64,000 bases of DNA. Source: Trueperaceae bacterium. Lineage in GTDB: Bacteria > Deinococcota > Deinococci > Deinococcales > Trueperaceae. Positions 2,093 to 34,279 of the stretch are shown in pieces; position 1 is the first letter of the stretch, and each line of letters starts with the position of its first letter. The translations under genes and the position numbers were made by a program. The notes under the pieces were generated by a model. It did not search any database and was not told the DNA's origin. It saw nothing but the letters and a program-made list of their open reading frames with translations. The stretch spans positions 2,656,001 through 2,720,000 of the forward strand of contig OZ243927.1 of assembly GCA_965213925.1 (NCBI GenBank), given 5' to 3'.

Positions 2093-2096
2093 CCTC

Positions 2097-2210: not shown

Positions 2211-2912
2211 GCGGGCGAAGCGCGTCGCGGGTTCCAGGTAGAGGCGTTTCGGCGCACCTACGTCTTCGACTTTGCCCGCGTTCATCAATACGACGAGGTC
2301 CGCTAAGCTCAGCGCCTCTTCCTGGTCGTGCGTCACGTGGATGAAGGTCGTGCCAACGCGCGTTTGAATGGTGATGAGTTCGCGCTGCATCTGCTTGCGC
2401 AAGTTGAGGTCGAGTGCGCCCAGCGGCTCGTCTAAGAGGAGGACTTGGGGCTCGGTCACGAGGCTCCGCGCCAGCGCGACGCGCTGCTTTTGTCCGCCGG
2501 AGAGTTCGTGGACGCTGCGCTTGCCGAACCCCGCTAAGCCGACCAGCTCCAGCATGTCCGCCGTCCGCTCTCTACGTTCCGCCTTAGCGATACCCTGCAT
2601 GGCGAGCCCAAAGGCGACGTTGTTCATCACGTTCATGTGCGGAAAGAGCGCGTAGTCTTGAAAGACAGTAGCGGTAGGACGCTCAGCAGGTGGGAGGTGC
2701 AGCACGCTCTCGCCGCCGATGCGCACCTCACCGGAGGTGGGTCCTAAAAAGCCTCCCAGGATATTGAGTAGCGTCGTCTTACCGCTCCCGGACGGACCGA
2801 GGAGCACCACGAAGCTGCCAGCGGGAAACTCTAAGGTGATGTCCTCCAATGCCACCGTCTCCCCGAAGCGCTTGTGCACGCCGCGAATCTCCACCCCGGC
2901 GCTGCTATTCAC
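2211..2912 (-). CDS. Polyamine-type ABC transporter ATPase (PotA-like), 3'-truncated
   Basis: GPSGSGKT, LSGGQKQR, LLLDEP; homology ends at EPATRFA and the C-terminal TOBE region is absent. Confidence 0.85.
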
Positions 2913-3693
2913 GTGCCCCCCGCCGACTCAGGATGACCCCTTCCGCGAGGACGAGGAGCAGGATGGACACCCCGAACACGACGCTACCCACCGCGTTCGT
3001 CTTGGGGCTCAGCCCGCTCCGCAATAGGCTCCAGATTTCCACGGGCAACGTCACGTCGAAGCGGCTCAGCAAGAAGGCGATGATGAATTCGTCCCAGGAG
3101 AGGGTGAAGGAGAGGAAGTACGCGGCGAAGAGGGCGGGCCACACCAGCGGCACGGTGATGCGGGCTAAAACGCGCCACTCGCTCGCCCCGAGGTCACGCG
3201 CCGCTCGCTCTAGCCGCGCCTGCTGCTCCCCTAACTGAGAATAGAGAATCGCAAAACAGAGCGGCATATTGATAACCACGTGCCCCGCGCCCACCCCCCA
3301 AAGTGATTTGCCGAGACCGAGCGCGTTGAAGGTAATGAGGAGCCCCATCCCGATGATGAGGTAGCTGACGCTGAGAGGTGCGGTCAGGAGCCAGCGCCAG
3401 GCGTCGGCGAAGGGTAGCGTGGCGCGGGCGAGCGCGTAAGCCGCCAAGAATCCGAGCGCGAGCGCGACGAGCGAGGAGAGCAAGGCAACCGAGAGCGAGT
3501 TGCCGAGCGCCGTCATGAGGCGTCGGTCCGCGAAGACCTCTTCGTACCAGCGCAAGGAGGGTCCGTCGAAGGGGGGCATGGGGAGGCTCGAGCCCTGCAA
3601 CGAGAAGAGCACGAGCGACGCGACAGGCAAGAAGATAAAGCCGTACACGAGCAGGACGTAGCCAGCGGTAGAAAGCCGACGCACCCCTCTCAT
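2905..3693 (-). CDS. ABC transporter permease (PotC-like)
   Basis: Hydrophobic; ERAARDLGA loop, SWDEF, TLPVEI. Confidence 0.9.
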   Translation of the reverse strand: MRGVRRLSTAGYVLLVYGFIFLPVASLVLFSLQGSSLPMPPFDGPSLRWYEEVFADRRLMTALGNSLSVALLSSLVALALGFLAAYALARATLPFADAWRWLLTAPLSVSYLIIGMGLLITFNALGLGKSLWGVGAGHVVINMPLCFAILYSQLGEQQARLERAARDLGASEWRVLARITVPLVWPALFAAYFLSFTLSWDEFIIAFLLSRFDVTLPVEIWSLLRSGLSPKTNAVGSVVFGVSILLLVLAEGVILSRRGARE

Positions 3694-3694
3694 C

Positions 3695-4546
3695 CTAGAC
3701 GCGCTCCAGACGCAAGTACCGCGCCGACAGCAGAAATACCAAGCTGATGACCACCATCAGAACGAGCGCCAGCGCCGACGCCACCGGAAAGTTCGCCTGC
3801 CGCCCGATCTGCAACATGATGACCTGCGGCAGCAGCAACTCTTGATTGCCGCCCAAGATCTGCGGCGTGATGTAGTCGCCGATGCAGAGCACGAAGGTCA
3901 AAAATGCGCCCGTCGCCACGCCCGGCACGCTGAGAGGCAGCGTCACGCGCCAGAAGGTTTGAAGCTGCGACGCGCCCAAGTCCGCTGCTGCTTTGGCGTA
4001 ACTTTTAGGAATCTGCACGAGGTTGGCGAAGATGGTGAGCGTGAGGAGCATCGTGAAGAAGTGGACGAAGCCGATGACGGTCCCCGTGCGACTGTTGACG
4101 AACGAGGTCGGCTCGCTCAGGAGCCCTAGTGCCTGCAAGGTGTTGCTCACGACGCCGTTGGAGGAGAGCACCAGCAGCCAACTGTAGGAGCGCACCACGT
4201 ACGAGGTCCAGAAGGGCAAAATCGCCAAGCTGAGCGCCAGCCGCTGCCACCGCGCCGGCGTGTGGTACGCCAGGATATAAGCGAGCGGGTAGGCTAAGAG
4301 CACACTGATAACCGTGACGAGCACCGTAACCTCGAGCGAATTGAAGAGCGCCTGCCAAAAGGTGCTCCTGGTAAAGAAGTCAACGTAGTTCTCGAGTGAA
4401 AAGGCGCGAACGGTCTCCATGCCGACGCGCTGCCAGAAGCTGTACACCGTCATGATGATGAGCGGCACGACAAAGAAGGCGAGCGTCCACAAGAGACCGG
4501 GGAGGAGCAGCGCCCAGGCGCGAAACCGAGCTTTAGACCGCATCAC
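3695..4546 (-). CDS. ABC transporter permease (PotB-like)
   Basis: ILPFWTSYVVRSYSW, AAADLGA, GDYITPQILGG. Confidence 0.9.
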   Translation of the reverse strand: MMRSKARFRAWALLLPGLLWTLAFFVVPLIIMTVYSFWQRVGMETVRAFSLENYVDFFTRSTFWQALFNSLEVTVLVTVISVLLAYPLAYILAYHTPARWQRLALSLAILPFWTSYVVRSYSWLLVLSSNGVVSNTLQALGLLSEPTSFVNSRTGTVIGFVHFFTMLLTLTIFANLVQIPKSYAKAAADLGASQLQTFWRVTLPLSVPGVATGAFLTFVLCIGDYITPQILGGNQELLLPQVIMLQIGRQANFPVASALALVLMVVISLVFLLSARYLRLERV

Positions 4547-6537: not shown

Positions 6538-7491
6538 ATGAGTAAAGGTCACGGACCTCTCGACGCTATGACCTACCCGCGCTTCGAAGGCGTGCGCACC
6601 TTTATGCGCCTTCCCTTCACTACGGACCTCTCCAACGCTGACATCTGCGTCGTCGGCGTGCCGTTCGACACGGGCGGGACGTACCGCGTCGGCGCACGTT
6701 TCGGTCCGTCGGGGATTCGCCAGGAGTCTATGCTCTTACGTCCGTACAATCCCGCGCTGGACGTGAACCTCTTCGATCACCTCTCCGGTGTGGACTACGG
6801 CGATTTACCCATCACGCCCGGCTACCTACCCGAGTCGCACGCGCAGATTACTGAAGGGGCGAAAGAGGTCATAACAAAGGGTTGCGTCCCCTTCTTCATG
6901 GGCGGCGACCACTCCGTCTCACTACCTCTTTTGCGGGCAGTGGCGAGCCAACACGGTCCCGTCGCGCTCGTCCACTTCGATGCGCACAGCGACCTCTGGG
7001 GCGGCTACTTCGGCGGGAAGGATACGCACGGCACACCCTTTCGCCGCGCGGTGGAAGAGGGGCTTTTGGACACGGAGCGCTCGAGTCAAGTCGGCTTGCG
7101 CGGTTCCCTATATGGTCCAGACGATGTGAGCATCTCCGAAGCGTTGGGCTTCCAGATGATTTCCGGTCCCGAGTTGCACGAGATTGGCGTCGAGGAGACC
7201 TTAAAACGCATTCACGAACGCATCGGCGAGGGTCCCGCCTATCTGAGTTTCGATATCGACTTTGTGGACCCGACCTTTGCGCCCGGTACAGGCACGCCCG
7301 AGGTGGGCGGCTTTACGAGTGCGCAGTGCCAAGCCTTGCTGCGCGGGCTCGTCGGCATCAACTTTGTTGCTTACGATTTGGTTGAGGTGATGCCCGCGTA
7401 CGATTCCGCTGCCACGACCTGTCTGCTCGCCGCCAACTTAATTTACGAAATGATGTCGCTCGAGGCGCTCAAACGCAAAAATAAGGGTTAA
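6538..7491 (+). CDS. speB: Agmatinase / ureohydrolase
   Basis: GGDHS, DAHSD, SFDIDFVDP, APGTGTPEVGG. Confidence 0.85.
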   Translation: MSKGHGPLDAMTYPRFEGVRTFMRLPFTTDLSNADICVVGVPFDTGGTYRVGARFGPSGIRQESMLLRPYNPALDVNLFDHLSGVDYGDLPITPGYLPESHAQITEGAKEVITKGCVPFFMGGDHSVSLPLLRAVASQHGPVALVHFDAHSDLWGGYFGGKDTHGTPFRRAVEEGLLDTERSSQVGLRGSLYGPDDVSISEALGFQMISGPELHEIGVEETLKRIHERIGEGPAYLSFDIDFVDPTFAPGTGTPEVGGFTSAQCQALLRGLVGINFVAYDLVEVMPAYDSAATTCLLAANLIYEMMSLEALKRKNKG

Positions 7492-7511
7492 ACCGCTCTA
7501 AGGAGGCAAAT

Positions 7512-8570
7512 ATGAAGCGTGTTATCAAGATAGTAAGTGTGCTCGTTCTCATCGGTATGGTGCTGCAAGTCGGCTTCGCCCAAGACCGCAGCCTCAAAAT
7601 CGGTGTCTACGGCGGCTACTTCAAGGAAGCCTTCGACGAACACATCTTCCCGCGCTTCACAGAAGAAACAGGCATCGAGGTCGAGTCCATCGCGGAGCCC
7701 ACGGGTGAGGCTTGGGTGGTGCAGTTAGAGACCGCTGCCAGAGCCGGACAAGCCCCCGCCGACGTTTCCATGATGTCACAAGTATCGCTCTTGCGCGGGA
7801 TGAACGGGGGTTTGTGGGCGACTTTGGACGAGAGCGCGATCTCGAACCTCGAGAACGTCCGCCCACCGCTTCAAAACCGCGATAGTGAAGGCAACCTCGT
7901 CGGCGTCGGTGCGGTCTCTTGGTACATCACGCTCGTGACGAATACCGAGACTTATCCCGACGCGCCGACCTCCTGGGAAACGCTTTGGGACTCCGCTAAC
8001 GAGAATCAACTCGGACTCTTGGCGCTCGCCTCGAACTCGTTTCTGCTAGAAGTCACCGCCGAGACCTTTTTCGACGGCGTCGAAATCTTAGAGACCGAAG
8101 AGGGTTTGAATCAGGTGCTCGATAAACTCGCGGAGGTCAAGCCCAACGTGCAGCTCTGGTACAGAGACGAGGGGCAGTTCCAACAGGCGTTGCAGTCCGG
8201 TGAGATACCGATGGGGCAGTATTATCATGACGTGACGGGTTTAGCGGCGGCGGACGGCTTCCCGGTACGCAGCACCTTTCCGCAAGAGGGCGCGATTTTA
8301 GACTCCGGCTCGTGGGCGGTGAGCCGCGCGTCGGACAAGCTCACTGAATCGCTAGAATTCATCAACTGGTTCAGCCAGCCCGAGATTCAAGACCTCGTGG
8401 CGCGGCAAGTCGGCACAGCGCCCACGGTTGTACGCGACGTGCTCTCGCTCAGCGACGAGGAGTTTGCGGCGGTCTCGAGCGACATAGAGCCTATTATCCC
8501 TATGTACAGCCTCTACTTGGAGCGCGGCGACGAAATCAGCCAGATGTGGAGCGAGCGGATTACAAGGTAG
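7512..8570 (+). CDS. ABC transporter substrate-binding protein (polyamine family)
   Basis: Signal peptide, YGGYFKEAF..FTEETGIEV; AGGAGG RBS. Confidence 0.85.
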   Translation: MKRVIKIVSVLVLIGMVLQVGFAQDRSLKIGVYGGYFKEAFDEHIFPRFTEETGIEVESIAEPTGEAWVVQLETAARAGQAPADVSMMSQVSLLRGMNGGLWATLDESAISNLENVRPPLQNRDSEGNLVGVGAVSWYITLVTNTETYPDAPTSWETLWDSANENQLGLLALASNSFLLEVTAETFFDGVEILETEEGLNQVLDKLAEVKPNVQLWYRDEGQFQQALQSGEIPMGQYYHDVTGLAAADGFPVRSTFPQEGAILDSGSWAVSRASDKLTESLEFINWFSQPEIQDLVARQVGTAPTVVRDVLSLSDEEFAAVSSDIEPIIPMYSLYLERGDEISQMWSERITR

Positions 8571-8588
8571 GGAGTAGTGAGAGAAAAA

Positions 8589-8649
8589 GACTGAGGACTG
8601 AGGTTAAAAGTTTAGTCTTTACTTTTCTCTCAGTCCTCGGTCCTCAGTC
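8589..8649. repeat. Inverted heptamer repeats forming an intercistronic hairpin
   Basis: GACTGAG x2 (8589-8602) faces CTCAGTC-CTCGGTC-CTCAGTC (8629-8649). Confidence 0.65.
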
Positions 8650-8704
8650 CTTCAACCTCTCTTGTTATCAACTCATTGTTCATTGCTTTCCGAATCGAGG
8701 TGCA

Positions 8705-9751
8705 ATGGCAGACGCCCTAACCATTCAAAATATCTCCAAACGCTTCGGCTCCACCGTCGCCTTAGAGGACATCGACCTCACCCTGGAGGCGGGCAAGCTC
8801 ATCTGCTTTTTGGGTCCGTCGGGTTGCGGTAAGACGACGCTTCTAAGGCTGATTGCGGGACTAGACAAGCCGACTACAGGTGAGATTTTCTTAGGTGATA
8901 AGAACCTTACGACGGTAAGCCCGCACAAGCGCAACGTCGGAATGGTCTTTCAGTCCTTCGCGCTCTTTCCGCACCTCAACGTGGCTGAAAATATTGGTTA
9001 CGGGCTGCGCATTCGCGGGGTGGATAAGCAGGAACGGCGCAAGCGGGCAGATGAACTCTTAGACCTCGTTAAACTGCCGGGTTTGGGTGACAGACATGTC
9101 GCGAAGCTCTCCGGCGGGCAGCAGCAGCGCGTAGCGATGGCTCGAGCGCTCGCTTTGGAGCCGTCGCTTTTTCTCTTAGACGAACCTCTCTCGGCGCTAG
9201 ACGCGAAGCTCCGTGAGGCGATGCAGGTTGAGTTGAGGTTACTGCAAGAACGCTTAGGGATTACCACCATCATCGTCACGCACGACCAGCAAGAGGCGAT
9301 GACGTTGGCGGACATCATCGTGGTGATGGGGGATAACCGCGTGCAGCAGGTGGGGGAGCCGCTTACGATATACAACTGCCCCGTCAACACCTTCGTCGCG
9401 GACTTTATCGGTACGAACAACCTCTTGCCGGGCAAGGTGGCGGACGCGCAGCGCGTCGAAGCGTTGGGGCAAGCCTTTCGCGTCGAGATGCCGTCCGAAC
9501 TGAATAGAGGACAAGAGGTCAACCTCTCCATCCGCCCTGAGAAGGTCTGCCTCCACGAGGCTAGACCCGCAGAGACCCCTAACTGCTGCGAAGGTACGAT
9601 TACCTTCGTCCGCGATTTAGGCTCGGTGGTGGAAACGTATGTCTCCGTCCAGGACCGAGAGGTCATCGTGGTGGGTGCGCCGCGTCACCCTACCGACACA
9701 CCTGTGTGGCTCACCTTTCCGCCCGAGGACTGCGTGGTGCTGAGCGCGTGA
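8705..9751 (+). CDS. ABC transporter ATPase (PotA-like)
   Basis: GPSGCGKT, LSGGQQQR, LLDEP, C-terminal TOBE. Confidence 0.92.
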   Translation: MADALTIQNISKRFGSTVALEDIDLTLEAGKLICFLGPSGCGKTTLLRLIAGLDKPTTGEIFLGDKNLTTVSPHKRNVGMVFQSFALFPHLNVAENIGYGLRIRGVDKQERRKRADELLDLVKLPGLGDRHVAKLSGGQQQRVAMARALALEPSLFLLDEPLSALDAKLREAMQVELRLLQERLGITTIIVTHDQQEAMTLADIIVVMGDNRVQQVGEPLTIYNCPVNTFVADFIGTNNLLPGKVADAQRVEALGQAFRVEMPSELNRGQEVNLSIRPEKVCLHEARPAETPNCCEGTITFVRDLGSVVETYVSVQDREVIVVGAPRHPTDTPVWLTFPPEDCVVLSA

Positions 9752-10602
9752 ATCATCCCGACTACAAACGCCCCAACAGCGTGAGACCTCATCTGACGCT
9801 GCTCTATCCGGGGCTCATCATCGTGTTGCTCTTCGTCACGCCGCTCCTTATCATGAGCGCGGTCAGCTTTTTCAGGCGGCTACAAAATGCCTTTTTCGAG
9901 CCCGCGTTTGTGTTGGAGAATTACTCGAGGGCGTTGGGTCCCTTCTTTCTAAACATCATCGGCTTCTCGCTCTTCGTCGCGGCGTTGGCGGCGGGCGTGT
10001 GTCTCGCGGTCGGCTTTCCTTTTACCTACTTCTTGACTCGCTTACGCCGCAAGGCGCAAGTCCCGTACCTCGTGCTCGTCATCTCAGTGCTCTCCTTGTC
10101 CGAGGTCATCATCGCCTTTAGCTGGTCACTCCTGTTGTCGCGCACTTCGGGCGTCTCCAACCTCTTCGCCTGGCTCGGGCTTTTAGAGAGTCCGGTCTCT
10201 TGGTCCCCTGGCTTCGCGGCGATGCTCTTGGGGCTCATCTACATCGCGCTGCCCCTGAGCGTGCTCATCCTCTATCCGCCACTGTCCCGCCTGGAGCGTG
10301 ACCTCACCGAAGCGGCGACGACGCTAGGCGCGTCGCCCGTCGTCTCGTTCTTTACTATCGTCGTGCCGCTCTTACGGCAGGCGCTCGTGTCGGCGTTTAT
10401 CCTCGTCTTTATCTTTGTGCTGGGGAGCTACCTCATCCCGCAGGTGTTGGGGCGTCCTGAGCAGTGGACGCTGCCCGTGCACATCACCGACCAGGCGATT
10501 TTGCAGTCGAACCTTCCTTTGGCAGCGGCGCTCGCTATCGTGTTGCTCGTTGCGAGCGTGGGGCTTTCGCTGCTCTCGTTGCGTTTGGGGGCGCGTGAGT
10601 GA
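9748..10602 (+). CDS. ABC transporter permease
   Basis: Hydrophobic, EAATTLGA; GTG start overlaps upstream stop. Confidence 0.88.
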   Translation: MNHPDYKRPNSVRPHLTLLYPGLIIVLLFVTPLLIMSAVSFFRRLQNAFFEPAFVLENYSRALGPFFLNIIGFSLFVAALAAGVCLAVGFPFTYFLTRLRRKAQVPYLVLVISVLSLSEVIIAFSWSLLLSRTSGVSNLFAWLGLLESPVSWSPGFAAMLLGLIYIALPLSVLILYPPLSRLERDLTEAATTLGASPVVSFFTIVVPLLRQALVSAFILVFIFVLGSYLIPQVLGRPEQWTLPVHITDQAILQSNLPLAAALAIVLLVASVGLSLLSLRLGARE

Positions 10603-12972: not shown

Positions 12973-13004
12973 TTTTGCGTTTAACGCGCGCGTCTCTCGC
13001 AGAA
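12973..13004. repeat. 32-bp palindromic boundary site
   Basis: TTTTGCGTTTAAC GCGCGC GTCTCTCGCAGAA. Confidence 0.85.
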
Positions 13005-13469: not shown

Positions 13470-14200
13470 TTAAAGCCTAAGTTCGTTATCCGCTGCGTTG
13501 TCTGGAACCTCGAGCGTCAAATCCGCTGTCGCCCCCGCCACCTGCTCATTGCGTACCCGGTCCAGATACGTCTTCGACTTGCCAATCTCCGCTTCGAGCG
13601 TGTCTACGGTTTGCTGCATCACGCCTAGAGCTGCCTGCTTGTATTCAGAAATCGCGTCCACCGCTGCGTAAACATTATTGAAAGCCTTCTGGAGTTGCTC
13701 GACATCCACGGTCGCTCCAGCCGCCTGCGTATGTACGCTCGAGGATTGCTTTCTCAAGAGCGCCGAGGTGGACGCGATGAGATTGCCTGTAGTCGCGTTA
13801 AGCGCGTCTATCTGGTCCAAGACGAGCTTCTGATTTGCCAGTCCCTGCGAGACCATGACCGCCGTGCGCAGCGCCGACACCGTCGTGGTCGAGGCGCGGT
13901 CCACACCCTTGATGAGTTCTAAGTTGTTCTTGCGGACCATGTCGAGCGCTAGATAGCCCTGAATAGAGACGGCGAGCTGCGTCTGTAAGTCCTGCACTTT
14001 CTGCCGCAAGTAAAAGAGCATCTCCTCTTCAACCACGCGGGCTTTTTCGGGCTCGGTGCGCTTGAGTTTGTCCGCACGTGCTAAGAGCGCTTCGTCCACT
14101 TTCCGCGCCAGATAGATATACGACTCCAACTTCTCCATCGCTTCCCACAAATTGACCTTCTCCTGCTCGATAGTCGCGTTGTCCTTGCGCAGCTCGTCTT
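13470..14200 (-). CDS. Toxic anion resistance protein (TelA family), 5'-truncated
   Basis: DELRKDNATIEQEK...RQKVQDLQTQLAVSIQGYLALDMVRKNNLELIKGVDRASTTTVSALRTAV; the N-terminus is lost at the junction. Confidence 0.85.
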
Positions 14201-15941
14201 GCTGCCGGTTAAAAGGGTGTATCGCCTACTCTACCGGCCTGACCTCTACCTGCGCGCCTACGCCAAGCTCTACAAGAACGAAGGCGCACTGACACCAGGT
14301 GCCTCGGACGAAACCGTGGACGGGATGTCCCTAGCGAAAATTGATACCATCATCGAGGCGCTACGCCAAGAGCGGTATCGGTGGACGCCGGTACGACGCC
14401 GTTACATTCCCAAAAAGAATGGCAAGATGCGGCCTCTAGGGATGCCTTCCTGGTCGGACAAACTTCTTCAAGAAGTTATCCGCTCCATCCTGGAAGCCTA
14501 TTATGAACCGCGGTTCAGCGACCGTTCTCACGGCTTTCGACCGAAACGGGGATGCCACACAGCTTTGCGCAAAGTCACCCAAGAGGGTCGAGGTACAAAG
14601 TGGTTTATCGAGGGAGATATCTGCTCGTGTTTCGACAAGATTAACTTCGATGTCTTGTTGAACATCTTGCAGAAGAGCTTCCACGACAACCGCTTCCTGC
14701 GGCTTATCAAGGGGCTGCTCGAAGCTGGCTACCTGGAGAACTGGACCTTTCACCAGACCTACAGCGGTGTGCCGCAAGGGTCGATTGTCGGTCCAATCCT
14801 CACCAACCTGGTTCTGGACAGGCTGGACAAGTTTGTCGAGCACGAACTGATACCAGCTTACACACGCGGCGAACGCCGCAAGACCTACCCCCCGTATGTC
14901 GCCATCGCCAAAGCCGCTCACGACGCTCGGAAAGCAGGGAACTGGGAGACCGCGCGGCAACTGAGCCAGCAGGCCCAGACAATGCCGTCGCGCGACCCCG
15001 ATGACCCGAACTTCCGGCGATTGTGGTACCAAAGGTATGCCGATGACTTTCTGCTGGGGCTGAAAGGGCCAAAAGACGAGGCCGTGGCTATCAAGCAAGA
15101 GATTGCCGCCTTCTTACGCGACGAACTCAAGCTTGAGCTTAGCGAGGATAAGACCCTGCTGACCCACGCGCGCACGCAGAAAGCGCGTTTCCTGGGCTAT
15201 GAGGTCCACATTCTTCACGCTGACGATAAACACGACCACCGGGGACAACGCTGCATCAACGGCAGCGTCGGACTCCGGGTACCGTCGCACGTCATGAAAG
15301 CGCACTGCGCCAAGTACATGCGACGCGGCAAGCCCATTCACCTCCCACAAAGGCTCAGCAGCGATGCTTACAGCATCGTCAGCCAATATCAAGCGGAATA
15401 CCGCGGGGTCGTGCAGTATTACCGCATGGCCTACAACCTCCACACGCTGGGCCGACTCAAGCGCGTCACAGAACTCTCGCTAGTGAAAACGCTGGCGAAT
15501 AAGTTCAGGACGAGTTGCCAGAAAATCTATCGGCGCTACCGCACCACCATCGACCTCAAGGAGGGCAGCTATAAAGTCCTTCAAGTCAAAGTGGACCGTG
15601 GTCCTAAAAAGAAGCCACTCATCACCCACTTTGGCGGCATCCCGTTACGGTGGAACAAATGGGTAGCCTTGGACGACAACCAGAACAGTAAGATTTGGAA
15701 CGGGCGTAATGAAGTGGTGGACCGCCTTTTAGCGCAAAGCTGTGAGCTTTGTGGGTCGGTGGAGCACGTCGAAGTGCATCACGTCCGAAAACTGGCAGAC
15801 CTTGAACAAAGAGGGCGTAAGTCACGGCCCGAATGGATGCAAAGGATGTCGGCTCGCCGACGCAAGACGCTGGTGGTCTGCCTCACCTGCCACCAAGACA
15901 TCCATAAAGGGCACTACCACGGGAAAGGACTTTCATGTTGA
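14199..15941 (+). CDS. Group II intron reverse transcriptase/maturase with C-terminal HNH endonuclease (N-terminus clipped)
   Basis: TPG..ETVDG, RPLGMP, SHGFRP, EGDI..CFD, GVPQGS, RYADDF, maturase X domain, CELCG..HHVRKL..CLTCHQDIH. Confidence 0.95.
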   Translation: MLPVKRVYRLLYRPDLYLRAYAKLYKNEGALTPGASDETVDGMSLAKIDTIIEALRQERYRWTPVRRRYIPKKNGKMRPLGMPSWSDKLLQEVIRSILEAYYEPRFSDRSHGFRPKRGCHTALRKVTQEGRGTKWFIEGDICSCFDKINFDVLLNILQKSFHDNRFLRLIKGLLEAGYLENWTFHQTYSGVPQGSIVGPILTNLVLDRLDKFVEHELIPAYTRGERRKTYPPYVAIAKAAHDARKAGNWETARQLSQQAQTMPSRDPDDPNFRRLWYQRYADDFLLGLKGPKDEAVAIKQEIAAFLRDELKLELSEDKTLLTHARTQKARFLGYEVHILHADDKHDHRGQRCINGSVGLRVPSHVMKAHCAKYMRRGKPIHLPQRLSSDAYSIVSQYQAEYRGVVQYYRMAYNLHTLGRLKRVTELSLVKTLANKFRTSCQKIYRRYRTTIDLKEGSYKVLQVKVDRGPKKKPLITHFGGIPLRWNKWVALDDNQNSKIWNGRNEVVDRLLAQSCELCGSVEHVEVHHVRKLADLEQRGRKSRPEWMQRMSARRRKTLVVCLTCHQDIHKGHYHGKGLSC

Positions 15942-16048
15942 GATTACTGGAGAGCCCCGTGACACGGAAAGCGGTCATGCGGGGTTCGGAGGGGGGATGT
16001 TGGAAAAGCGCTATCTTTGATAGGCAGCTCGCTGGCATCCTACCCTAC
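14201..16048 (+). mobile_element. Group II intron (inner), 5' domains missing
   Basis: RT ORF followed by DV (GAGCCCCGTGACACGGAAAGCGGTCATGCGGGGTTC) and DVI ending CCTACCCTAC. Confidence 0.9.
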
Positions 16049-16103
16049 CGCACGCACGGCTCTTAGGGGGGAGGAAGGCAGCGATGTCTTCTTCCTACCC
16101 GAC
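16049..16103 (+). mobile_element. 3' end of a second (outer) group II intron: 3' half of DV plus DVI
   Basis: CGCACGCACGGCTCTTAGGGGGG then hairpin GAGGAAGGCA-GCGA-TGTCTTCTTC and CTACCCGAC terminus. Confidence 0.8.
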
Positions 16104-16114
16104 CTGTTGCACAG
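16104..16114. repeat. Partial right arm of a boundary site, interrupted by the intron
   Basis: CTGTTGCACAG = positions 3-13 of the right-arm pattern; first 8 nt are the reverse complement of TGCAACAG in the 18061 site. Confidence 0.6.
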
Positions 16115-16176
16115 CGGCACATCGCTGAGCAACATATTTTATAGTGATTCGGATTACGTTCTCCTATACTCAGGTT

Positions 16177-17985
16177 ATGCCTCGCCTCATCGTCATCTCA
16201 TTTTTACTTTGTAGCTTTCTCGTGGGTTGCTCGAGCACCACGCCACTTTCACCACCAGGTGAAACGCCCCCTGTGACTGAGCCTAACCCAACTACCCCTA
16301 CCGAACCGACTTCACCTGAAACGCCCGCGCCCGAACCAACACCCACCACCCTTACGCCTGAAGAAGCTGACCGCATCGCCCTGACGCTCTGGCGCAACGA
16401 TGACCTCGGCAAACATCCCAAGGGCTCCTGCTCAGGCTGTCACGGCGCGGACTACTTTGATCTCGCCCGCATTGGCTCGGCGGATGAGGATATCGCTCGG
16501 CGAGCGGTGATCGACGGAGCGAGTCAACGAGAGGCGGACGCGCTTGTGCAAGCAGTCGGGCAGATGCGCCAAACGTACGGGCTAGTCGCAGACGACGCCC
16601 GCGCCTTTCGCCCCTTTCAACCGGGCGGCGAGGTGCTGCTGCCTAATCTTGACGACGCTGAGCACATCGTTTCGGTGGAGCGAGATATCGCTTTTGGTCA
16701 CCAGCTAGAAGCTCTCTTGCCAACCCTCTTCGGCGAACGTATCGCCTCACTAGCGGACGCAGAACGGGCGCGTGACGAACTCTTGGACCTCGCCCAAGGA
16801 GCTAACCAGGCGGGCGCGAACTCCCAGCGTATTCAACTTAGGGAGTTGCCTACCGGCATCACCTACCCACGCTGGTCAGCCGATCTGCACCACGGCGCAG
16901 ACGAGGGCACGCTCAACGATTGGCTTGCCGATGTCGCGCACGACGCCAAGCCGGAGCACCGCGAGGCGTGGTTGGGGCTGCAAGACGCCTACCTTGCAAC
17001 CCCTAGCGACGAGAACTTCTGGCGCATGTATCTCGCCGCTGAGGAGATGACCGCGACGCCCCTTTTCGGTGAGTGCACCATGACGGGGGGAAGGGCGCAT
17101 ATAGCCTGTGCGGACGTTAAGCGCTTTGCTCGAGAGAAATTCTTGAGCGCGTTGACGGGTCAGCACATGATGCGCTTAGAGGCGTCCGGGCGTGAGGGTT
17201 TTGCGGAGGGCGCACTAGCCTTTTCATACCTCGACACCGACCCCCGCTTCGACTTCATGAAGGAGCGTAAGAGCCGCACGCTTTTGCCCGCCAACCTCTG
17301 GGAAGTGGGCGACAAGGGGCGGAGCACCTTAGAAAATTCTCAGGCTGAGGGCAGTTTTCGCGAGAACTTAGCGAAGCTCGGCTATCCTGAGTTTGTGCAA
17401 GGCAGCATCGACCCCACACGCAGCGCGAGCCAGGAACAACATGAGTTACGCCTCGCCTGGTTCTGGTTAGGCTTCACCTTCGACCCCTCCTTTGCCCGTA
17501 TTCACAGCTCCAACGCCACCAAAGTGGGTGAGTATATGGTGGGAACGCTCCTCGATGAGCGGATGTTCATTCACAATACCTTTCACACCAACATGCGGCT
17601 GGTGACTAAGGGGTTTTTACCAGAAGCGAACAGAGAACAGGCAGGGCGCGAGCGCACTCTGGAACAGCTGCCCACCGTTTTTCGCATGAACTACGGTTAC
17701 TTTTGGGCTTACGGGCGCACGGTGCTCAATTGGCGGGAGAACAAAAAGCTTAACTTCGTTTACCCCGAAGACCTCAAAGCGGAGCAAGCCGACCTCTGGC
17801 ACCGCTTTACGGCGAACGGCTTTCGGATGAGCATGTTTCTTTACTTGGCGGCATTAGAAGAGGGCGCACCTAAAGACAGCGTTGCTTTTGACGCCCTAAC
17901 GACGCACTTTGAGACCTACGAACCTGAGCATCAAGAAGCAGACAATGCGCTGATGGCGCAGCTTAGGCGTAAGCTGGAGGAGTAG
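16177..17985 (+). CDS. Hypothetical lipoprotein with Pro/Thr linker and one CxxCH motif
   Basis: Lipobox LVGC, PT-rich tether, CSGCH; TATACT-N6-ATG leaderless start. Confidence 0.75.
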   Translation: MPRLIVISFLLCSFLVGCSSTTPLSPPGETPPVTEPNPTTPTEPTSPETPAPEPTPTTLTPEEADRIALTLWRNDDLGKHPKGSCSGCHGADYFDLARIGSADEDIARRAVIDGASQREADALVQAVGQMRQTYGLVADDARAFRPFQPGGEVLLPNLDDAEHIVSVERDIAFGHQLEALLPTLFGERIASLADAERARDELLDLAQGANQAGANSQRIQLRELPTGITYPRWSADLHHGADEGTLNDWLADVAHDAKPEHREAWLGLQDAYLATPSDENFWRMYLAAEEMTATPLFGECTMTGGRAHIACADVKRFAREKFLSALTGQHMMRLEASGREGFAEGALAFSYLDTDPRFDFMKERKSRTLLPANLWEVGDKGRSTLENSQAEGSFRENLAKLGYPEFVQGSIDPTRSASQEQHELRLAWFWLGFTFDPSFARIHSSNATKVGEYMVGTLLDERMFIHNTFHTNMRLVTKGFLPEANREQAGRERTLEQLPTVFRMNYGYFWAYGRTVLNWRENKKLNFVYPEDLKAEQADLWHRFTANGFRMSMFLYLAALEEGAPKDSVAFDALTTHFETYEPEHQEADNALMAQLRRKLEE

Positions 17986-18060
17986 CAAGCTGTCGTCGCC
18001 TTGCTCAGCGCTTTTAGCCTGACCTTTATACAACAAACTAGGTCGAAACTTGCGTAAGCG

Positions 18061-18092
18061 CAATGCAACAGACGCGCGCGTTCGTCGCAGAA
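18061..18092. repeat. 32-bp palindromic boundary site
   Basis: CAATGCAACAGAC GCGCGC GTTCGTCGCAGAA. Confidence 0.85.
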
Positions 18093-18227
18093 GCGCTGAA
18101 TCTGCTTCCACTTGTCTGTCAGCGTGTCTACAGTGTTCCCTTACGCCCCTCTGACATAGGCTTGCTAGGGTCACTTCAGCTACCGGTAGCTAGACTGACA
18201 CTCAATGACGCAGTGAGGAGAGGGTTT

Positions 18228-19859
18228 ATGCTACCTATAAAAGAGTTGTTATTCGCCAGCTTATTAGCGCTTACGGTTGGACAGGCACAAGAGACCGGAG
18301 GCGCTGAAACGGGCGGTGCCCAGGCATCAGGGCAGAGCGTTTCGGGCGTCGTCTACAACGATCTAAACGAGAACCGGCAGCGCGACGAAGGCGAAGCGGG
18401 GGTCGCAGGCGTGTCAGTCTCGAACGGGCTCGAGGTGGTGCAAACAGACGATAGCGGTCGCTATGAACTGTCCGCTCGTGACGAGATGATCATGTTCGTC
18501 ACCAAACCCGCTGGCTACATGGTCCCGGTGAACGAGGTGATGCTGCCGCAGTTCTACTACATCCACCAGCCTAACGGCACGCCCGAAGACTTAGACCTCG
18601 ACTTTGACGGCATCGAGCCGACAGGTCCGCTGCCTGACTCGGTAGACTTTCCGCTGCAAGCGTCCGAGCTGGATGAGTCGTTTGAGGCACTCGCCTTCGC
18701 CGACCCACAGCCCCGCGACGACACCGAACTCGACTACATCCGTGACGACGTAATTACGGAAATCGTTGGTACGGACGCCGCTTTCGGCATCACCGTCGGC
18801 GACATCATGTACGACGACCTGTCCCTGTTCGAGCGCTATAACGAAGTCGTTGCAGCGATCGGTATCCCCTTCTGGAACGTGCCGGGCAACCACGACCTGA
18901 ACTTCCAGTCCCCGGACGACGCTTACTCGCTCGAGACTTACAAGCGCATCTATGGACCCGCCTACTACTCGTTTGACTATGGGCAGGTGCACGTCGTGGT
19001 GATGGACAACGTCGAGTACTTCGGGGTGGAGGACGGCGAGTCGAGCGGCTACCGCGGCTACATCGGCGGAGCGCAGCTCTCTTGGCTCGAGAACGACCTG
19101 CGCTTCGTCCCGGAGGACAAGCTCATCGTCTTAGCCATGCACATCCCCCTGATCGACCAAGGGCGCGAAGACAGCGCCGGCGTCAACACCGCCGACCGCG
19201 AGGCGCTCTTCGAGGTCTTGGCGGGGCGCGAGCGGGTGCTCTCCATCTCGGGCCACGTCCACGCCAAGACCGAGCACAGTTACTTCGGCGAAGCAGACGG
19301 CTTTCAAGCGCCCAACCCGCTGCATCACATCACCCTGACGACCCTCTCGGGCGTCTGGTGGGGCGGGCCTGAGGACGAGCGCGGCATCCCCATCACCACC
19401 ACTCGTGACGGGCTGCCGAACGGTCATCACGTCCTCTCCTTTGAGGGCAACGCCTACCGCGAGCGGCTCAAGGGGGCGGGCGAAGCCGCCGACTATCAGA
19501 TGAACATCAGCGTCGCCCAGGCGCAGCAGGACGGCAACACCCTCGACCCCGCGCAGTGGTCCGGACCGCAAGTCGTCGCCAACGTCTTTAACGGCAGCGA
19601 GCTTTCCAGCGTCCGCTATCAGATCGACGGGAGCAAGATGCGGACGATGGAGCGCACCCTGCGCGGCGACCCCTACGTCAGCGAGCTGCAGGAGCGTTTC
19701 CCCGAGGAGATGCCCGGTCCTATCGACTCGTCGCACATCTGGACCGCACCCCTGCCGGACGACCTAGCGCCCGGCGTGCACCGGGTCCGCGTAGAAACGA
19801 CCGACCAGTACGCTCAGACCTTCCGGGCGACGCGCGTCTTCGAGGTCGCCGGGGAGTAG
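18228..19859 (+). CDS. Secreted calcineurin-like metallophosphoesterase
   Basis: Signal peptide, SdrD-like N-domain (SGVVYNDLNEN), ADPQ, GDIMYD, PGNHD, HIP, SGHVH. Confidence 0.88.
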   Translation: MLPIKELLFASLLALTVGQAQETGGAETGGAQASGQSVSGVVYNDLNENRQRDEGEAGVAGVSVSNGLEVVQTDDSGRYELSARDEMIMFVTKPAGYMVPVNEVMLPQFYYIHQPNGTPEDLDLDFDGIEPTGPLPDSVDFPLQASELDESFEALAFADPQPRDDTELDYIRDDVITEIVGTDAAFGITVGDIMYDDLSLFERYNEVVAAIGIPFWNVPGNHDLNFQSPDDAYSLETYKRIYGPAYYSFDYGQVHVVVMDNVEYFGVEDGESSGYRGYIGGAQLSWLENDLRFVPEDKLIVLAMHIPLIDQGREDSAGVNTADREALFEVLAGRERVLSISGHVHAKTEHSYFGEADGFQAPNPLHHITLTTLSGVWWGGPEDERGIPITTTRDGLPNGHHVLSFEGNAYRERLKGAGEAADYQMNISVAQAQQDGNTLDPAQWSGPQVVANVFNGSELSSVRYQIDGSKMRTMERTLRGDPYVSELQERFPEEMPGPIDSSHIWTAPLPDDLAPGVHRVRVETTDQYAQTFRATRVFEVAGE

Positions 19860-19891
19860 GGACAAACAGAGGCGTTCTGTCTGAATCAGGT

Positions 19892-19926
19892 GAACAGGAG
19901 CGGTCTACTATGAACCGCTCCTGTTC
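19892..19926 (+). terminator. 13-bp stem hairpin after the phosphoesterase gene
   Basis: GAACAGGAGCGGT-9 nt-ACCGCTCCTGTTC. Confidence 0.55.
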
Positions 19927-19976
19927 GCTCGGACTGAACATTTGTATAGAGGGGCACAGGAACGGAACCTATCTTT

Positions 19977-20008
19977 TTCTGCAACGAACGCGCGCGTTCG
20001 CCGCAGAA
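19977..20008. repeat. 32-bp palindromic boundary site
   Basis: TTCTGCAACGAAC GCGCGC GTTCGCCGCAGAA. Confidence 0.9.
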
Positions 20009-20076
20009 GCTAACTGGGCTTTCCTACTACAAAACCCAGCTTATCTCTCGACTAACGCGATGACTTTCGGTGGCGA

Positions 20077-21471
20077 TCAAAGCGAAAAGAGTTGCCACCA
20101 GAACGCCCACGGCACGAACAGCATCGCCCCGCCCATCAAGAGGGCGAGCCAGACGCGCTCAACTCCCTGTACCGACTGCCGCCCCCGGTACCAGGTGGCT
20201 GTAAGTAGAACCGCCGTTAGCAAAAGTGCGAAAGCAAGAAGCTGGAGGAGGAACCAGCCGACTGGACGCCCTGCGATGACCGAGGTCACGCCTTCGCCGG
20301 ATGTCGCAGCGACATACCCCGTATAGGCGTACACGCCCCAAGGGGTGACTAGACCGAGCACAGTGAGAACCCAGGTACTCCACCTGCCTGGCATCCGCTG
20401 CGGCTTGGCGCGGCGAAGATACCTGACACCCGCTGCGACGAGGTACCCGCCAAAGACAAGCTGAAACAAGGCGAAGAAGGCGAGCTGCACCTGCCACCGG
20501 GCGAAGCCCTGCACATCCGTCACCGAAGGTCGGGTAGGGTGCCCGTCCGCTGGCGACGCGTCCAAGTGCGGTCCCGGTGGCGCGTCGGCGGTAACGTTCC
20601 GAAGCCATGAGGTCATCGTCTCGACGTAACCCGGGGCGAGCGCGCCGGTCACCTGGTCTTCAGCGACCGCGCTCGCGTCGTGGCTGGCGTCAGAAATAAA
20701 GCGCAGGACGTAGTGCCGATGACCTCCCCGCGCCAACGCTCGCCGCATAACACGGGCACTTTTGGCGGCAGGCATGACGCGATCCAGGGAACCCCAGAGG
20801 GCGAGGACAGGCTGACGGAGCTGCTCGAGAACGGGCGCGGGGTCGTATGTCCCTTCAGCAAAGAGCTCGGCCGAGATGAGGAAACGGTAGGTATGGTCCG
20901 CAAGAGCCCGCAGGCTCCCCTCTGAGGTGACGCCCTGCCGACGGAGCGCGCCCTCCGTCGCCCAAGCGCTCTGCTCTGCAGGCCCTACCCCCCCGCCTGC
21001 GACGGTGATCACGAACGCGATGTCGGTGGAGCGTGTGGCGGCTAGTGGCGCGACCCAGCCGCCTTCACTCAGACCCCACAAGCCGACCTGAGCGGGATTC
21101 ACCTCGTCACGCTGCTGCAGCATCTGCACGGCGGCGACAGCGTCGTCGGCTAGAAGAGAATACGAGCGGTCGCCTGCAGGGTTGGCGCTGTAGCCTTGGG
21201 TGCGCTTGTCGTAAAGCAGGGTGAGGAACCCCTCTCTTGCCAGGGCTTCAGCTACAGGGCGGTTCTCGTCACGCTTTCCAGGACCCGCCCCGTGAACGAG
21301 CACGACCGCCGGGACCCTGCCGCTCTGTTCGGGGATCAGCATTGTGCCGTGCAGCCTCACGTCACCGCTTTCGAAACTCAGCGCCTCTTCCGTCGCAGCC
21401 TGGGCGTGAGCGCCCGCCGCCGCAAGCCAGCAACTGAGGAGCAGCAACATCGTGAACACACAAAAGCGCAT
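20077..21471 (-). CDS. Exported alpha/beta hydrolase with C-terminal membrane helices
   Basis: VHGAG, YDKR, GLWGLSEGGW nucleophile motif, DASH; about four C-terminal TM segments. Confidence 0.85.
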   Translation of the reverse strand: MRFCVFTMLLLLSCWLAAAGAHAQAATEEALSFESGDVRLHGTMLIPEQSGRVPAVVLVHGAGPGKRDENRPVAEALAREGFLTLLYDKRTQGYSANPAGDRSYSLLADDAVAAVQMLQQRDEVNPAQVGLWGLSEGGWVAPLAATRSTDIAFVITVAGGGVGPAEQSAWATEGALRRQGVTSEGSLRALADHTYRFLISAELFAEGTYDPAPVLEQLRQPVLALWGSLDRVMPAAKSARVMRRALARGGHRHYVLRFISDASHDASAVAEDQVTGALAPGYVETMTSWLRNVTADAPPGPHLDASPADGHPTRPSVTDVQGFARWQVQLAFFALFQLVFGGYLVAAGVRYLRRAKPQRMPGRWSTWVLTVLGLVTPWGVYAYTGYVAATSGEGVTSVIAGRPVGWFLLQLLAFALLLTAVLLTATWYRGRQSVQGVERVWLALLMGGAMLFVPWAFWWQLFSL

Positions 21472-21662
21472 AAATTTAGCTGTCCCGATGACGACCCAAG
21501 CTTCGGTCGTTACGGCGTGAACCGTTCGAGGGCGAGGGTACAAAGACTGGTGAGTGCGTCATCATGCGACCTCATCCCTAGCGTAGCCCAGCAGCGCCAC
21601 AAACCGCATGTGCTTAAAGTCATGCACTCTCTACTATCTTGACGTCTAGCTGCTTTGCGGCG

Positions 21663-21694
21663 TTGTGCAAAAGACGCGCGCGTTCGTCGCACAA
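21663..21694. repeat. 32-bp palindromic boundary site
   Basis: TTGTGCAAAAGAC GCGCGC GTTCGTCGCACAA. Confidence 0.9.
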
Positions 21695-21748
21695 AGTTTA
21701 AGCTTCAGAAGGCTTATGAAGTGACCTAAAAGTTCTAGGAAGTGGGCA

Positions 21749-22276
21749 TCACCCGAGAGCTTCCAGGCTTTTGCGCGCATTCCCCGCTACCGACTTCCGC
21801 TCATCTTCCCTCAGGCGTATCAGGTGGGGTCGGAGCCACGCTTTGAGGCTTTCGTCCTCCTTAGCCCATTGGGTCAAGGTTTTCATCGTGTTATTTAGCA
21901 CGATCCAATCCGTATGGGTCGCAAGCGTATGTTTAAGATGGTCGGTAGCCTGTGAGCGTTGCTTAGCTGTCATGCGGTCGCTCAACATGCCGAATAGGAG
22001 GGCGAGCGTCCACTGAGTGGAGGCTTGATCGATCTGCGCGATCTCTTCTAAAAGCCGGTCGAGGTAGGGCTCTGACCACTCGGGGTGCGCGAGGGTCACG
22101 CGCTTGACGGCGTTCGACGTCCTCAGCCGCACGATCTCGTCAGCGCTGAAGTAACATCGGTATAGCTCCTCAAGTCGCGTCCTATCGCTCAGCACGATCT
22201 CCACAACTTCGAGAGTACGCCCCAGAGAGTTGGGATGTCCTCCGGTGAGCATGGATTCGAATGTTTCTTCCGCCAT
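21749..22276 (-). CDS. Conserved hypothetical helical (HEAT/ARM-like) protein
   Basis: MLTGGHPNSLGRT..VRLRTSNA..DWIVLNNTM; plausible helical-repeat protein. Confidence 0.7.
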   Translation of the reverse strand: MAEETFESMLTGGHPNSLGRTLEVVEIVLSDRTRLEELYRCYFSADEIVRLRTSNAVKRVTLAHPEWSEPYLDRLLEEIAQIDQASTQWTLALLFGMLSDRMTAKQRSQATDHLKHTLATHTDWIVLNNTMKTLTQWAKEDESLKAWLRPHLIRLREDERKSVAGNARKSLEALG

Positions 22277-22467: not shown

Positions 22468-22499
22468 CTGTGCGGCAGACGCGCGCAACTCTTGCACAA
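22468..22499. repeat. 32-bp palindromic boundary site
   Basis: CTGTGCGGCAGAC GCGCGC AACTCTTGCACAA. Confidence 0.88.
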
Positions 22500-22532
22500 A
22501 ACCAGAGCAACACGTCGTTATAAACTGCTTAC

Positions 22533-22985
22533 TCATTCCTTCGCCCGCTCAACAAGCGCTGCAATCCTCTCCTCGAAGCTGAAAGAGCCGAGCGGCTCGA
22601 CCTCGACTTGACGAAAGTCCGGATGGTCGGGGTTGAGAAGCACATTAAAGCTTTCAGGTGCGACCACTGAGGGAACGCGCAGAGCAACGCTTCTCGCTTC
22701 GCGCACCCAGGTGTCACCGTAGGACCGCGTCTGAACTCGGTCATTGATCCCGAGGTCGTCAGGCGCATTCTCGAGAAGAGTCTCATCGAAGGTACAGCGG
22801 TAAAGGTTATAACCCTGTAGGCTGGCGTAGACCTCCCAACCGGCTAGAATCTCTAGTGCAGCTAGAGCAGCGTGCTCCGCTGTATACACCATAACCGTGC
22901 CCTCGCTATTCCAACGCCCTGGTGCGCCGCGTGGTCTGAACGCCGCACTCAAACTGTTCGTAAAAGCTAAGCGGTAGACCTTCAA
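22533..22985 (-). CDS. RES-domain toxin (NAD+ phosphorylase family)
   Basis: VYR..GRWNSEG..VYTAEH..ALE..LRVPSVV..NVLLNPDHPDF. Confidence 0.92.
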   Translation of the reverse strand: MKVYRLAFTNSLSAAFRPRGAPGRWNSEGTVMVYTAEHAALAALEILAGWEVYASLQGYNLYRCTFDETLLENAPDDLGINDRVQTRSYGDTWVREARSVALRVPSVVAPESFNVLLNPDHPDFRQVEVEPLGSFSFEERIAALVERAKE

Positions 22986-23425
22986 AGAAAAGTGCCGTCC
23001 TCCAGCGCGGTAAGCATGTTTTGAAGCTTGCTGACCCCGACGCGCGTAGCCAGCAAGTCGATAGGTCTAGCTCCGTCTAGGGCAGCCTTAGGGCTCCCGA
23101 ACCAAGCTTTCGCCCCCTCCTGTCCGAGAATGCTCGCGACCCGTGCAAACAGGGTAAGCGCACTGTAGGTACGGTCTAAAAGCTCGACGCTCATATCTGG
23201 GTTCTTACTCTTGCGCGAGCGGCTGATGCCGAGCACAGCGAGTGCTTCGGTTTTGCTGATATCAAGCAGGGAAGTCAAACGTCTTAGAACCTGCTCGAGG
23301 GAGGACTCGCCAACGACAGTTTGCTTGAGCACGGCCTCAGCTACCTCGTTCGGCGTAGTGTCGAGTACCTGTTCAAACAGTGCCTCGCGGGTAGAAGCAA
23401 AGGAAGTCTGTATCACGTTCAACAT
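22982..23425 (-). CDS. Xre/MbcA/ParS-type antitoxin
   Basis: AKAWFGSPKAALDGARPIDLLATRVG..LEDG; overlaps RES start; start codon uncertain. Confidence 0.88.
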   Translation of the reverse strand: MLNVIQTSFASTREALFEQVLDTTPNEVAEAVLKQTVVGESSLEQVLRRLTSLLDISKTEALAVLGISRSRKSKNPDMSVELLDRTYSALTLFARVASILGQEGAKAWFGSPKAALDGARPIDLLATRVGVSKLQNMLTALEDGTFL

Positions 23426-23452
23426 AGTAGCATGAAACTTCAACGTTTAGCG

Positions 23453-25104: not shown

Positions 25105-25136
25105 TTGTGCAACGAACGCGCGCGTTCGCCGCCTAA
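25105..25136. repeat. 32-bp palindromic boundary site
   Basis: TTGTGCAACGAAC GCGCGC GTTCGCCGCCTAA. Confidence 0.88.
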
Positions 25137-34247: not shown

Positions 34248-34279
34248 TTCTGCAACTGACGCGCGCGACTGCCGCACAA
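34248..34279. repeat. 32-bp palindromic boundary site
   Basis: TTCTGCAACTGAC GCGCGC GACTGCCGCACAA. Confidence 0.9.

Follow-up and report, generated by a model that had tools for sequence, protein, structure and literature searches.

Remnant of a group II intron next to an arm of a repeated palindrome, with an LtrA-like intron nested in its domain V

Directly behind the last base of a group II intron, at position 16103 of the window (the whole stretch of 64,000 nucleotides of Trueperaceae DNA that was analysed), lies one arm of a palindrome of which nine complete copies occur elsewhere in the same window. With a probability of about 0.6, this intron, the outer of two nested ones, would have been inserted in a copy of the palindrome at the boundary between core and arm, the evidence for this being confined to the 3′ flank. 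The inner intron belongs to an LtrA-like group that appears to home into domain V (DV) of other group II introns, and this is the better supported and the more interesting of the two results.

The intron remnants and their truncation

The locus comprises the following features.

13470-14210, minus strand: telA without its 5′ part (Pfam TelA profile positions 107-332 of 332)
14211-15941, plus strand: RT-maturase-HNH ORF of the inner group II intron, about 23 N-terminal codons missing, YADD intact
15952-15987 and 15988-16048, plus strand: inner domain V and inner domain VI, with the 3′ end ...CCTACCCTAC at 16048
16049-16103, plus strand: last 55 nt of the outer group II intron, identified by fold, family matches and the homologous twintron L107
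16049-16062, plus strand: outer DV 3′ strand, reading CGCACGCACGGCTC
16066-16100, plus strand: outer domain VI hairpin (35 nt) with bulged A, preceded by the linker TTA and followed by the 3′ end GAC
16094-16103, plus strand: terminal bases of the outer intron, CCTACCCGAC
16104-16134, plus strand: right half of a palindromic site, consisting of the arm CTGTTGCA (16104-16111), CA, a spacer and GAGCAACA (16127-16134)
16177-17985, plus strand: lipoprotein gene with the signal ...LVGC and a CSGCH motif, forming the module that follows the junction

A second, outer intron ending at 16103 was part of the original prediction, and it is upheld by the domain VI (DVI) fold and by at least 116 family matches. 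The fold of 16049-16103 is a DVI hairpin in which a single A, 7 nt before the end, is bulged (-23.5 kcal/mol, z = -2.83), and both a bulged A at 7-8 nt from the 3′ end and a terminal AY are in place. The DV 3′ strand is present, while a complete DV, the 5′ GUGYG and DI-DIV are absent from what is a fragment, and Rfam gave no group II D1-D4 match in the whole window. The family was collected by a degenerate-pattern scan of public genome contigs that covered both tails; the loci listed exclude the window's own genome, and L081-L115 were seen with only about ±300 nt of flank. The outer-tail design (DV 3′ strand, 3-nt linker, GGGGGGA..., CCTACCCNNN) was found at no fewer than 116 places in at least 115 public loci, with the outer-type 50-nt spacing in most of the matches listed. 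Because many of these end in exactly CCTACCCGAC and then pass into unrelated exon sequence, 16103 is taken as the last base of the outer intron, and its 3′ exon starts 73 nt from the next start codon.

The RT encoded by a full family member (L009) matches the T.el4h RT (6me0) at E = 8e-162, and this resemblance together with the family match assigns the tail to the IIB1/CL design and not to IIC, a fit judged on 55 nt, with DI and the ORF gone from the window copy. That the intron is not IIC had been predicted from its DV strand, rightly on the present evidence: the strand CACGGCTC implies GAGCC (AGC), as against the CGC-type shortened DV of IIC. At 16058-16062 the window reads GGCTC and all 116 matches listed read GGTTC, which shows a putatively derived change in the catalytic-triad pair, by decay or as a variant. 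The change would convert the conserved G·U of the catalytic-triad helix to G-C.

The inner ORF carries RVT_1, Intron_maturas2 and an AI2M-like HNH domain, and its product aligns with LtrA (PDB 5g2x) at E = 2e-115, query residues 5-570 against LtrA 24-597. RF00029 matches at 15950-16048 with 46 bits (gathering score 40), the single group II match of Rfam in the window, and apart from it a scan of 15900-16200 by E-value gave chance matches only. The inner DV-DVI fold has z = -4.35. Having an LtrA-like RT with X and HNH and a DV/DVI, with DI-DIII absent, the inner intron is by these sequence marks IIA/ML-like and En+.

Upstream, the minus-strand homology to TelA extends to about 14210, and RT homology takes over on the plus strand from about 14211. 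This sharp junction joins telA to inner RT codon ~24, and the 580-codon RT frame is still open. The 5′ exon of the outer intron, which had been described as not visible, was removed here together with DI and EBS1/2/3 of that intron, and no EBS is left for either intron. We infer that the fusion arose by a deletion, or by abortive reverse transcription joined to distant DNA. The telA of the window is a pseudogene, the 580-codon RT ORF belongs to a 5′-truncated, immobile remnant, and both introns have lost splicing and mobility; the 55 nt, with the half-site behind them, would be the fossil of an insertion junction. For the lipoprotein at 16177-17985 no Pfam family was found; its CSGCH is a CXXCH motif, and weak Atlas leads point to cytochrome c / SoxA-TsdA domains (0.83).

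Introns nested in domain V

The inner intron end ...CCTACCCTAC directly abuts CG-CA-CGCACGGCTC of the outer DV. Of the two junctions of a twintron the window keeps the 3′ one alone, and both are visible in L116, L117 and L121. The same DV position is occupied in 8 further loci (L107, L116, L117, L118, L119, L121, L122 and L123), the count of the window plus at least 8 loci being drawn from the contig-scan loci and from fetched plasmid records. In L107, from a Rubrobacteraceae MAG, an inner-type end ...CCTACCCTAC stands directly before GG-CA-CGCACGGTTC. Among the matches listed L107 is the closest relative of the outer tail, and it compares with the window as follows.

Outer tail: 42/55 identical
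Inner DV: 32/36 identical
Inner DVI: 45/61 identical
RT coding: 121/188 identical
3′ exon: 17/82 columns identical

Where L107 and the window differ in the outer DVI stem, pairing between its strands is mostly kept. Copies of the outer intron in unrelated targets had been named beforehand as a point against a palindrome target; the 3′ exon of L107 is indeed unrelated, but L107 is a diverged homologue and not a copy, so the point applies weakly.

A plasmid blastn search with 15600-16103 gave 5 records, and 4 of the 4 fetched were nested in DV at the same position. With the inner RT, plasmid tblastn gave 750 records at E < 1e-60; the top 8 of these were examined, and 3 were nested in DV and 5 were not.

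L116, Priestia filamentosa p5: nested in DV; target IBS1 GAAAGG, candidate EBS1 CCTTTC
L117, B. thuringiensis pST7-1: nested in DV; target IBS1 GAAAGT, candidate EBS1 ACTTTC
L118, Nostoc HK-01 plasmid2: nested in DV
L119, Streptomyces antimycoticus plasmid: nested in DV
L121, Microvirga: RT relative nested in DV; target IBS1 AAAGC, candidate EBS1 GCTTT
L122, Streptomyces NBC_00271: RT relative nested in DV
L123, Salmonella plasmid: RT relative nested in DV
L120, Megaera; L124, Streptomyces NBC_01136; L126, Rhodococcus; L125, Calothrix; L127, Nostoc UHCC: RT relatives not in DV

When the flanks of the inner intron are rejoined in L116, L117 and L121 a normal domain V is restored, the matching DV 5′ strand lying directly upstream of the inner GTGCG; some 720-765 nt upstream of this point, L116 and L117 additionally have GTGCGAC, the 5′ end of the outer intron. 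In all three loci the DV target and the candidate EBS1, located in one and the same homologous DI loop, covary. From these junctions and predicted pairings, members of the LtrA-like group insert into other introns 2 nt behind the DV tetraloop, and twintrons of this kind are recurrent, the window probably containing one. The group occurs in the window host and in Bacillota, Actinomycetota, Cyanobacteriota and Pseudomonadota, that is in at least 9 loci and at least 4 phyla. Outside DV, L125 and L127 (at about 1876-4300) have as their insertion site the ...LDIEKC motif in the RT gene of a different intron, and the inner-RT clade seems, taken together, to be specialised for conserved positions within other group II introns. 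In the Megaera intron, the closest among the top relatives (64.6% identity), no more than 4 bp can form between the ...CTTTTT... loop and the present exon, which points to a DV-homing intron copied to an ectopic site. In the Microvirga locus (1755-4400) a complete tRNA gene stands first, then come about 50 nt with a DV 5′ strand, next the inner intron, next the DV 3′ strand and DVI, and finally a duplicate tRNA 3′ end (GGTTCAAGTCC...CCA); the host 'intron' there is a DV-DVI fragment only.

The outer introns of L116 (3826-7105) and L117 (4004 to about 7300) are ORF-less and measure about 800 nt without the inner intron, and the sole RT of these composite elements is that of the DV-invading inner intron. 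Their EBS1 candidates match their own, differing and unrelated 5′ exons. On this account, and because the relatives lie in unrelated sequence, the outer family is taken to have no conserved palindrome preference, and since it changes targets by base pairing, the relatives are no guide to the target in the window.

The same outer halves bear on a different reading of the 55 nt, by which they would be a 3′ extension of the LtrA-like intron and not an outer intron at all. In class B introns, B.c.I4 among them, splicing takes place 50-70 nt beyond DVI. The 'domain VII' of B.c.I4 is given as 56 nt (PMC1865049, PMC4424553), close to the 55 nt seen here, and in the window and L107 the 3′ parts alone are visible. 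The 55 nt are nevertheless a textbook DV 3′ strand plus DVI of the IIB1/CL design, and matching outer DV 5′ strands are found in L116, L117 and L121 and outer 5′ ends in L116 and L117. These 5′ halves, with the DV 5′ strand of L121, dispose of the extension, which we hold to be highly improbable.

A DV-homing group explains why RT genes are sometimes trailed by an orphan 'second' DV/DVI tail, and hidden ORF-less introns can be traced by such DV-nested tails. What serves as a homing site here is the part of the ribozyme that is most conserved.

The palindromic repeats and the half-site

A pattern search of the 64-kb window gave 14 strand-matches, equal to 9 palindromic sites, as against 0.16 expected by chance. 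Each site has 26 bp, with the 10-nt core ACGCGCGCGT between two arms of 8 nt. The core is exact in 7/9 sites and is self-complementary, so that the nine sites amount to 18 equivalent half-sites, and the consensus from the 18 arms is TGCRRNNR-ACGCGCGCGT-YNNYYGCA. The complete sites, given without strand, are these.

12976-13001: between convergent genes, about 400 nt from each
18064-18089: left arm TGCAACAG (18064-18071), the exact inverse of 16104-16111
19980-20005: complete site
21666-21691: complete site
22471-22512: complete site (22471-22496) with its right flank CTCTTGCACA ... GAGCAACA, which parallels 16104-16134; oriented as the half-site
25108-25133: complete site
34251-34276: complete site
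37919-37944: complete site, oriented as the half-site
55139-55164: complete site

By the ORF list, 8/9 sites follow a stop codon at a distance of 120 nt or less, beside genes of either strand, the site at 12976 being the one exception. The gene content of the window (ABC transporters, glycoside hydrolases, regulators, two RES-Xre pairs) is that of ordinary chromosome-like DNA, and among the ORFs scanned there was no integrase, other recombinase or Y1 transposase, and no RAYT gene. Being short, imperfect, repeated, intergenic and mostly 3′ of genes, the nine sites look like REP or terminator-like elements and not like attC-type cassette boundaries. The original framing of the half-site as a cassette boundary of the attC kind accordingly finds no support, given sites of 26 bp, the missing integrase, genes on both strands and the positions after stop codons.

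The sites can be oriented, one arm being TGCAAC-like and the other TGCGRC-like when reverse complemented, and the two strands differ, with G·U pairs on one and A·C mismatches on the other. This asymmetry suggests a function as RNA or single-stranded DNA on one strand. The sites 18064, 19980, 21666, 25108 and 34251 fall in one orientation group and 22471 and 37919 in the other, and the strand of the neighbouring gene does not simply predict the orientation. The two RES-toxin/Xre-antitoxin pairs, at 22533-23443 (minus strand) and 55213-56105 (plus strand), each have a palindromic site within 50 nt of one end.

The 8 nt that follow the outer intron, CTGTTGCA, were predicted to be the exact inverse of the left arm of the site closing the same module, and they are its exact reverse complement (8/8); the sequence of that arm, TGCAACAG, was given correctly, and its coordinate is 18064 and not 18061, an offset of 3 nt. 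In a position matrix of the 18 arms from the nine complete sites TGCAACAG has the top score, reached at only 5 of the 127,985 8-mer positions on both strands of the window, and this result is unchanged without the identical arm at 18064. CAG stands directly after the arm at 16104, and the 10-mer CTNTTGCACA has 3 occurrences on both strands, the other two at the true sites 22489(+) and 21673(-). Within about 25 nt after the arm, both at 16104 and at 22489, lies GAGCAACA; with 7 copies in the whole window, the P value for a span of 40 nt is ~0.002. TG precedes the arm at the junction, as it does in 5/9 sites when these are oriented alike. The match of CTGTTGCA to the palindrome arms exceeds chance, and on this evidence the outer 3′ exon begins, as foreseen, with a genuine arm of the local family. 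Because the 3′ exon opens with the whole right arm, and the intron stands in place of the expected core, an insertion at ACGCGCGCGT|CTGTTGCA is the simplest account. A local hairpin at the half-site was first seen via a chance Rfam alignment: TGTTGC pairs 6/6 with GCAACA (16129-16134), 16 nt downstream of the arm. Since the same arrangement of arm and GAGCAACA is present at site 22471, this hairpin is assigned to the repeat. A promoter and terminator scan called nothing at 16104-16176.

In the course of events that we favour, 14211-16103 would be the 3′ two-thirds of a dead twintron. An outer intron of the IIB1/CL type, possibly a small ORF-less form, would have reverse-spliced into the top strand of a palindrome at the very point where the 10-bp core ACGCGCGCGT meets the 3′ arm CTGTTGCA; the target would have had the orientation of 22471 and 37919, and the 5′ exon would have ended ...NNACGCGCGCGT. 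Judged by homology, an LtrA-like IIA/ML En+ intron would then have homed into the outer DV, 2 nt after the tetraloop, the inner EBS1 pairing with the loop plus 2 nt. A deletion or abortive reverse transcription may finally have fused RT codon ~24 to telA, at the junction that is seen, with the loss of the inner DI-DIII, of all the outer intron upstream of the DV 3′ strand, of the left arm and core of the palindrome and of the 5′ part of telA.

A structural precedent exists within the outer family. The 3′ exon starts of 45 family introns were screened for inverted copies of the sequence just upstream of any GTGYG, a noisy screen with many spurious 5′ end candidates, and L030 and L062 alone stood up. 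In these two Undibacterium species (6568-9649 and 6972-10053, respectively) a terminator-like hairpin is interrupted by a ~3.1-kb IIB1 intron, which follows the apical loop at a distance of 2 nt, immediately precedes the 3′ arm and has a start codon about 19 nt further on; folding energies of -27 to -29 kcal/mol are obtained for the ligated exons, and where the arms differ between the two species the differences compensate each other. By analogy this geometry would be the same as that proposed for the window. Both introns probably belong to the IIB1 lineage known from the vicinity of start and stop codons, as outlined in part of PMC12584367. The Lewinellaceae loci L028, L049 and L108 were rejected as palindrome inserts; their 3′ exons open with hairpins, and the 5′ exons of L028b and L049 form no palindrome. 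These loci (L028 629-738, L049 ~8270-8384, L108) have a conserved insertion of about 33 nt in the DV tetraloop (GGG[...]AAACTAG), and the DV with this insertion is still a full DV/DVI for Rfam at 46 bits. The core ACGCGCGCGT is absent from all of the at least 115 loci listed (910,704 nt), so none of them is a close relative of the window host, and a megablast of 16104-22000 against the plasmid collection gave no match.

Several observations tell against an insertion in the palindrome. The other nine sites, with 18 half-sites, are all unoccupied by an intron. No gene ending in a stop codon is seen upstream of the half-site, unlike at 8/9 complete sites, and the outer introns of L107, L116, L117, L121 and L123 sit in unrelated sequence. 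The pairing of the arm with GCAACA further means that part of the resemblance could reflect a local hairpin. Taken to its end, this would make the junction an ordinary insertion site at which CTGTTGCA, as the 5′ strand of a stem-loop at 16105-16135 followed by TATTTTAT, is arm-like by chance. Such a coincidence gains from the 6/6 pairing, from the mere five or so conserved positions per arm and from the core not being visible at the junction, but it leaves a matrix score found at so few positions, two further copies of CTNTTGCACA that are both at true sites, and an arm with GAGCAACA that also flanks the true site 22471; nor was 16105-16145 called by the terminator scan. We consider it unlikely. 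Palindromes are deletion hot spots, and the locus already has one unexplained junction at 14210/14211, so a break in a fragile palindrome, or a misassembly, could have joined a half-site to the intron end. Such a rearrangement or assembly chimera would need one break exactly at the last intron nucleotide and exactly at the core/arm boundary, and we give it a lower standing still than the coincidence.

Apart from a single insertion, a regular relation between intron and palindrome can be imagined. A dedicated homing of the outer intron to the palindrome ranges in our estimate from quite unlikely to doubtful, depending on its form. The form with attC-like recombination or cassette-boundary sites, to which the outer intron would home repeatedly in parallel to the IIC-attC introns, stands at the low end, about level with a rearrangement. 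With an invariant self-complementary core, all sites would present identical IBS1/IBS2 on either strand, units of one to three genes are bracketed by sites at 16.1-25.1 kb, and the arm at 16104 is complementary over its full length to the one closing the same gene; the next successive-site pairs, however, are complementary at 7/8, 4/8 and 5/8. IIB introns have been reported in and near integrons and CALINs (in part of PMC7923331), while the 26-bp sites are without the R'' and R' consensus given in that part of the same source. Against it are also the lack of an integrase or recombinase in the ORFs scanned, genes on both strands, 18 other half-sites that are empty, and outer-intron relatives with unrelated targets. 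At the upper end, and in our opinion speculative, is a three-tier arrangement in which the GCGCGC-core palindromes would be the regular homing site of a small, perhaps ORF-less IIB1 intron whose DV is in turn the regular site of a widespread LtrA-like hyperparasite. With the same reserve, the self-complementary core might supply IBS1/IBS2 on either strand, and the hyperparasite might supply the RT that moves its host. The insertion of the outer intron in one copy of the palindrome is the reading we retain.

Relation to known systems

If a non-IIC intron did land in a REP-like palindrome, the targeting of hairpins as a 'safe haven' would not be confined to class C, and conserved palindromes could seed intron spread. 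In the literature searched, no non-IIC intron inside a REP-like palindrome and no bacterial group homing into DV was reported, though either may have been described before. The bacterial target specificities of introns covered in the accessible part of PMC4424553 are homing sites, positions after terminators and attC, alongside twintrons and the class B 3′ extension. IIC introns insert after a hairpin, and IIC-attC introns at TTGT/T in the attC bottom strand (PMC7923331 and PMC4424553, both in part). The window would resemble these in that a group II intron is tied to a DNA stem-loop at gene 3′ ends, a 'safe' intergenic target, but its predicted cut lies inside the palindrome, between core and 3′ arm (junction ...|CTGTTGCA), and its tail is of the IIB1/CL design with an AGC-type DV strand. 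Integron attC sites (R''-L''...L'-R', RYYYAAC/GTTRRRY) come one per promoterless cassette, in contrast to window arms of the form TGCRRNNR and genes on both strands. They also measure 55 bp or more, compared with 26 bp for the window palindromes.

With the IIB1/CL introns of the T.el4h type the window shares the DV 3′ strand, linker, DVI and 3′ end seen in the at least 116 family members; it departs from them in that 55 nt only are left of the tail and that GGCTC stands for GGTTC. The pattern of the lineage found near start and stop codons is not seen either, the junction lying 73 nt from the next start codon. As in other short, imperfect, repeated intergenic palindromes of the REP kind, a mobile element would have struck the repeat. 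To our knowledge, mobile elements with a specificity for REP are IS elements. Of the group II intron copies in P. putida KT2440, only 2/9 are REP-associated (PMC1525189).

The known twintrons (T. elongatus, Methanosarcina/B.th.I3, Trichodesmium) are alike in that a conserved site of one group II intron is the homing target of a second, mobile one. The insertion sites reported, as far as the available parts of these sources go, are DIV or the ORF start (PMC2882425), RT motifs (PMC2504315) and DI (PMC4649490), and the twintrons of PMC7049729 are likewise among DIV, RT-motif or DI insertions. Unlike in these bacterial and archaeal twintrons, the insertion site in the window is the catalytic domain V. 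An insertion in DV is known from the Euglena psbF twintron. The closest likeness of the inner protein is to that of Ll.LtrB (IIA, ML), since it aligns with LtrA across the RT, X and HNH domains. Unlike Ll.LtrB/LtrA, the group to which the inner intron belongs has an EBS1 of the form NNTTTC and targets the DV tetraloop of other introns, the copy in the window being 5′-truncated.
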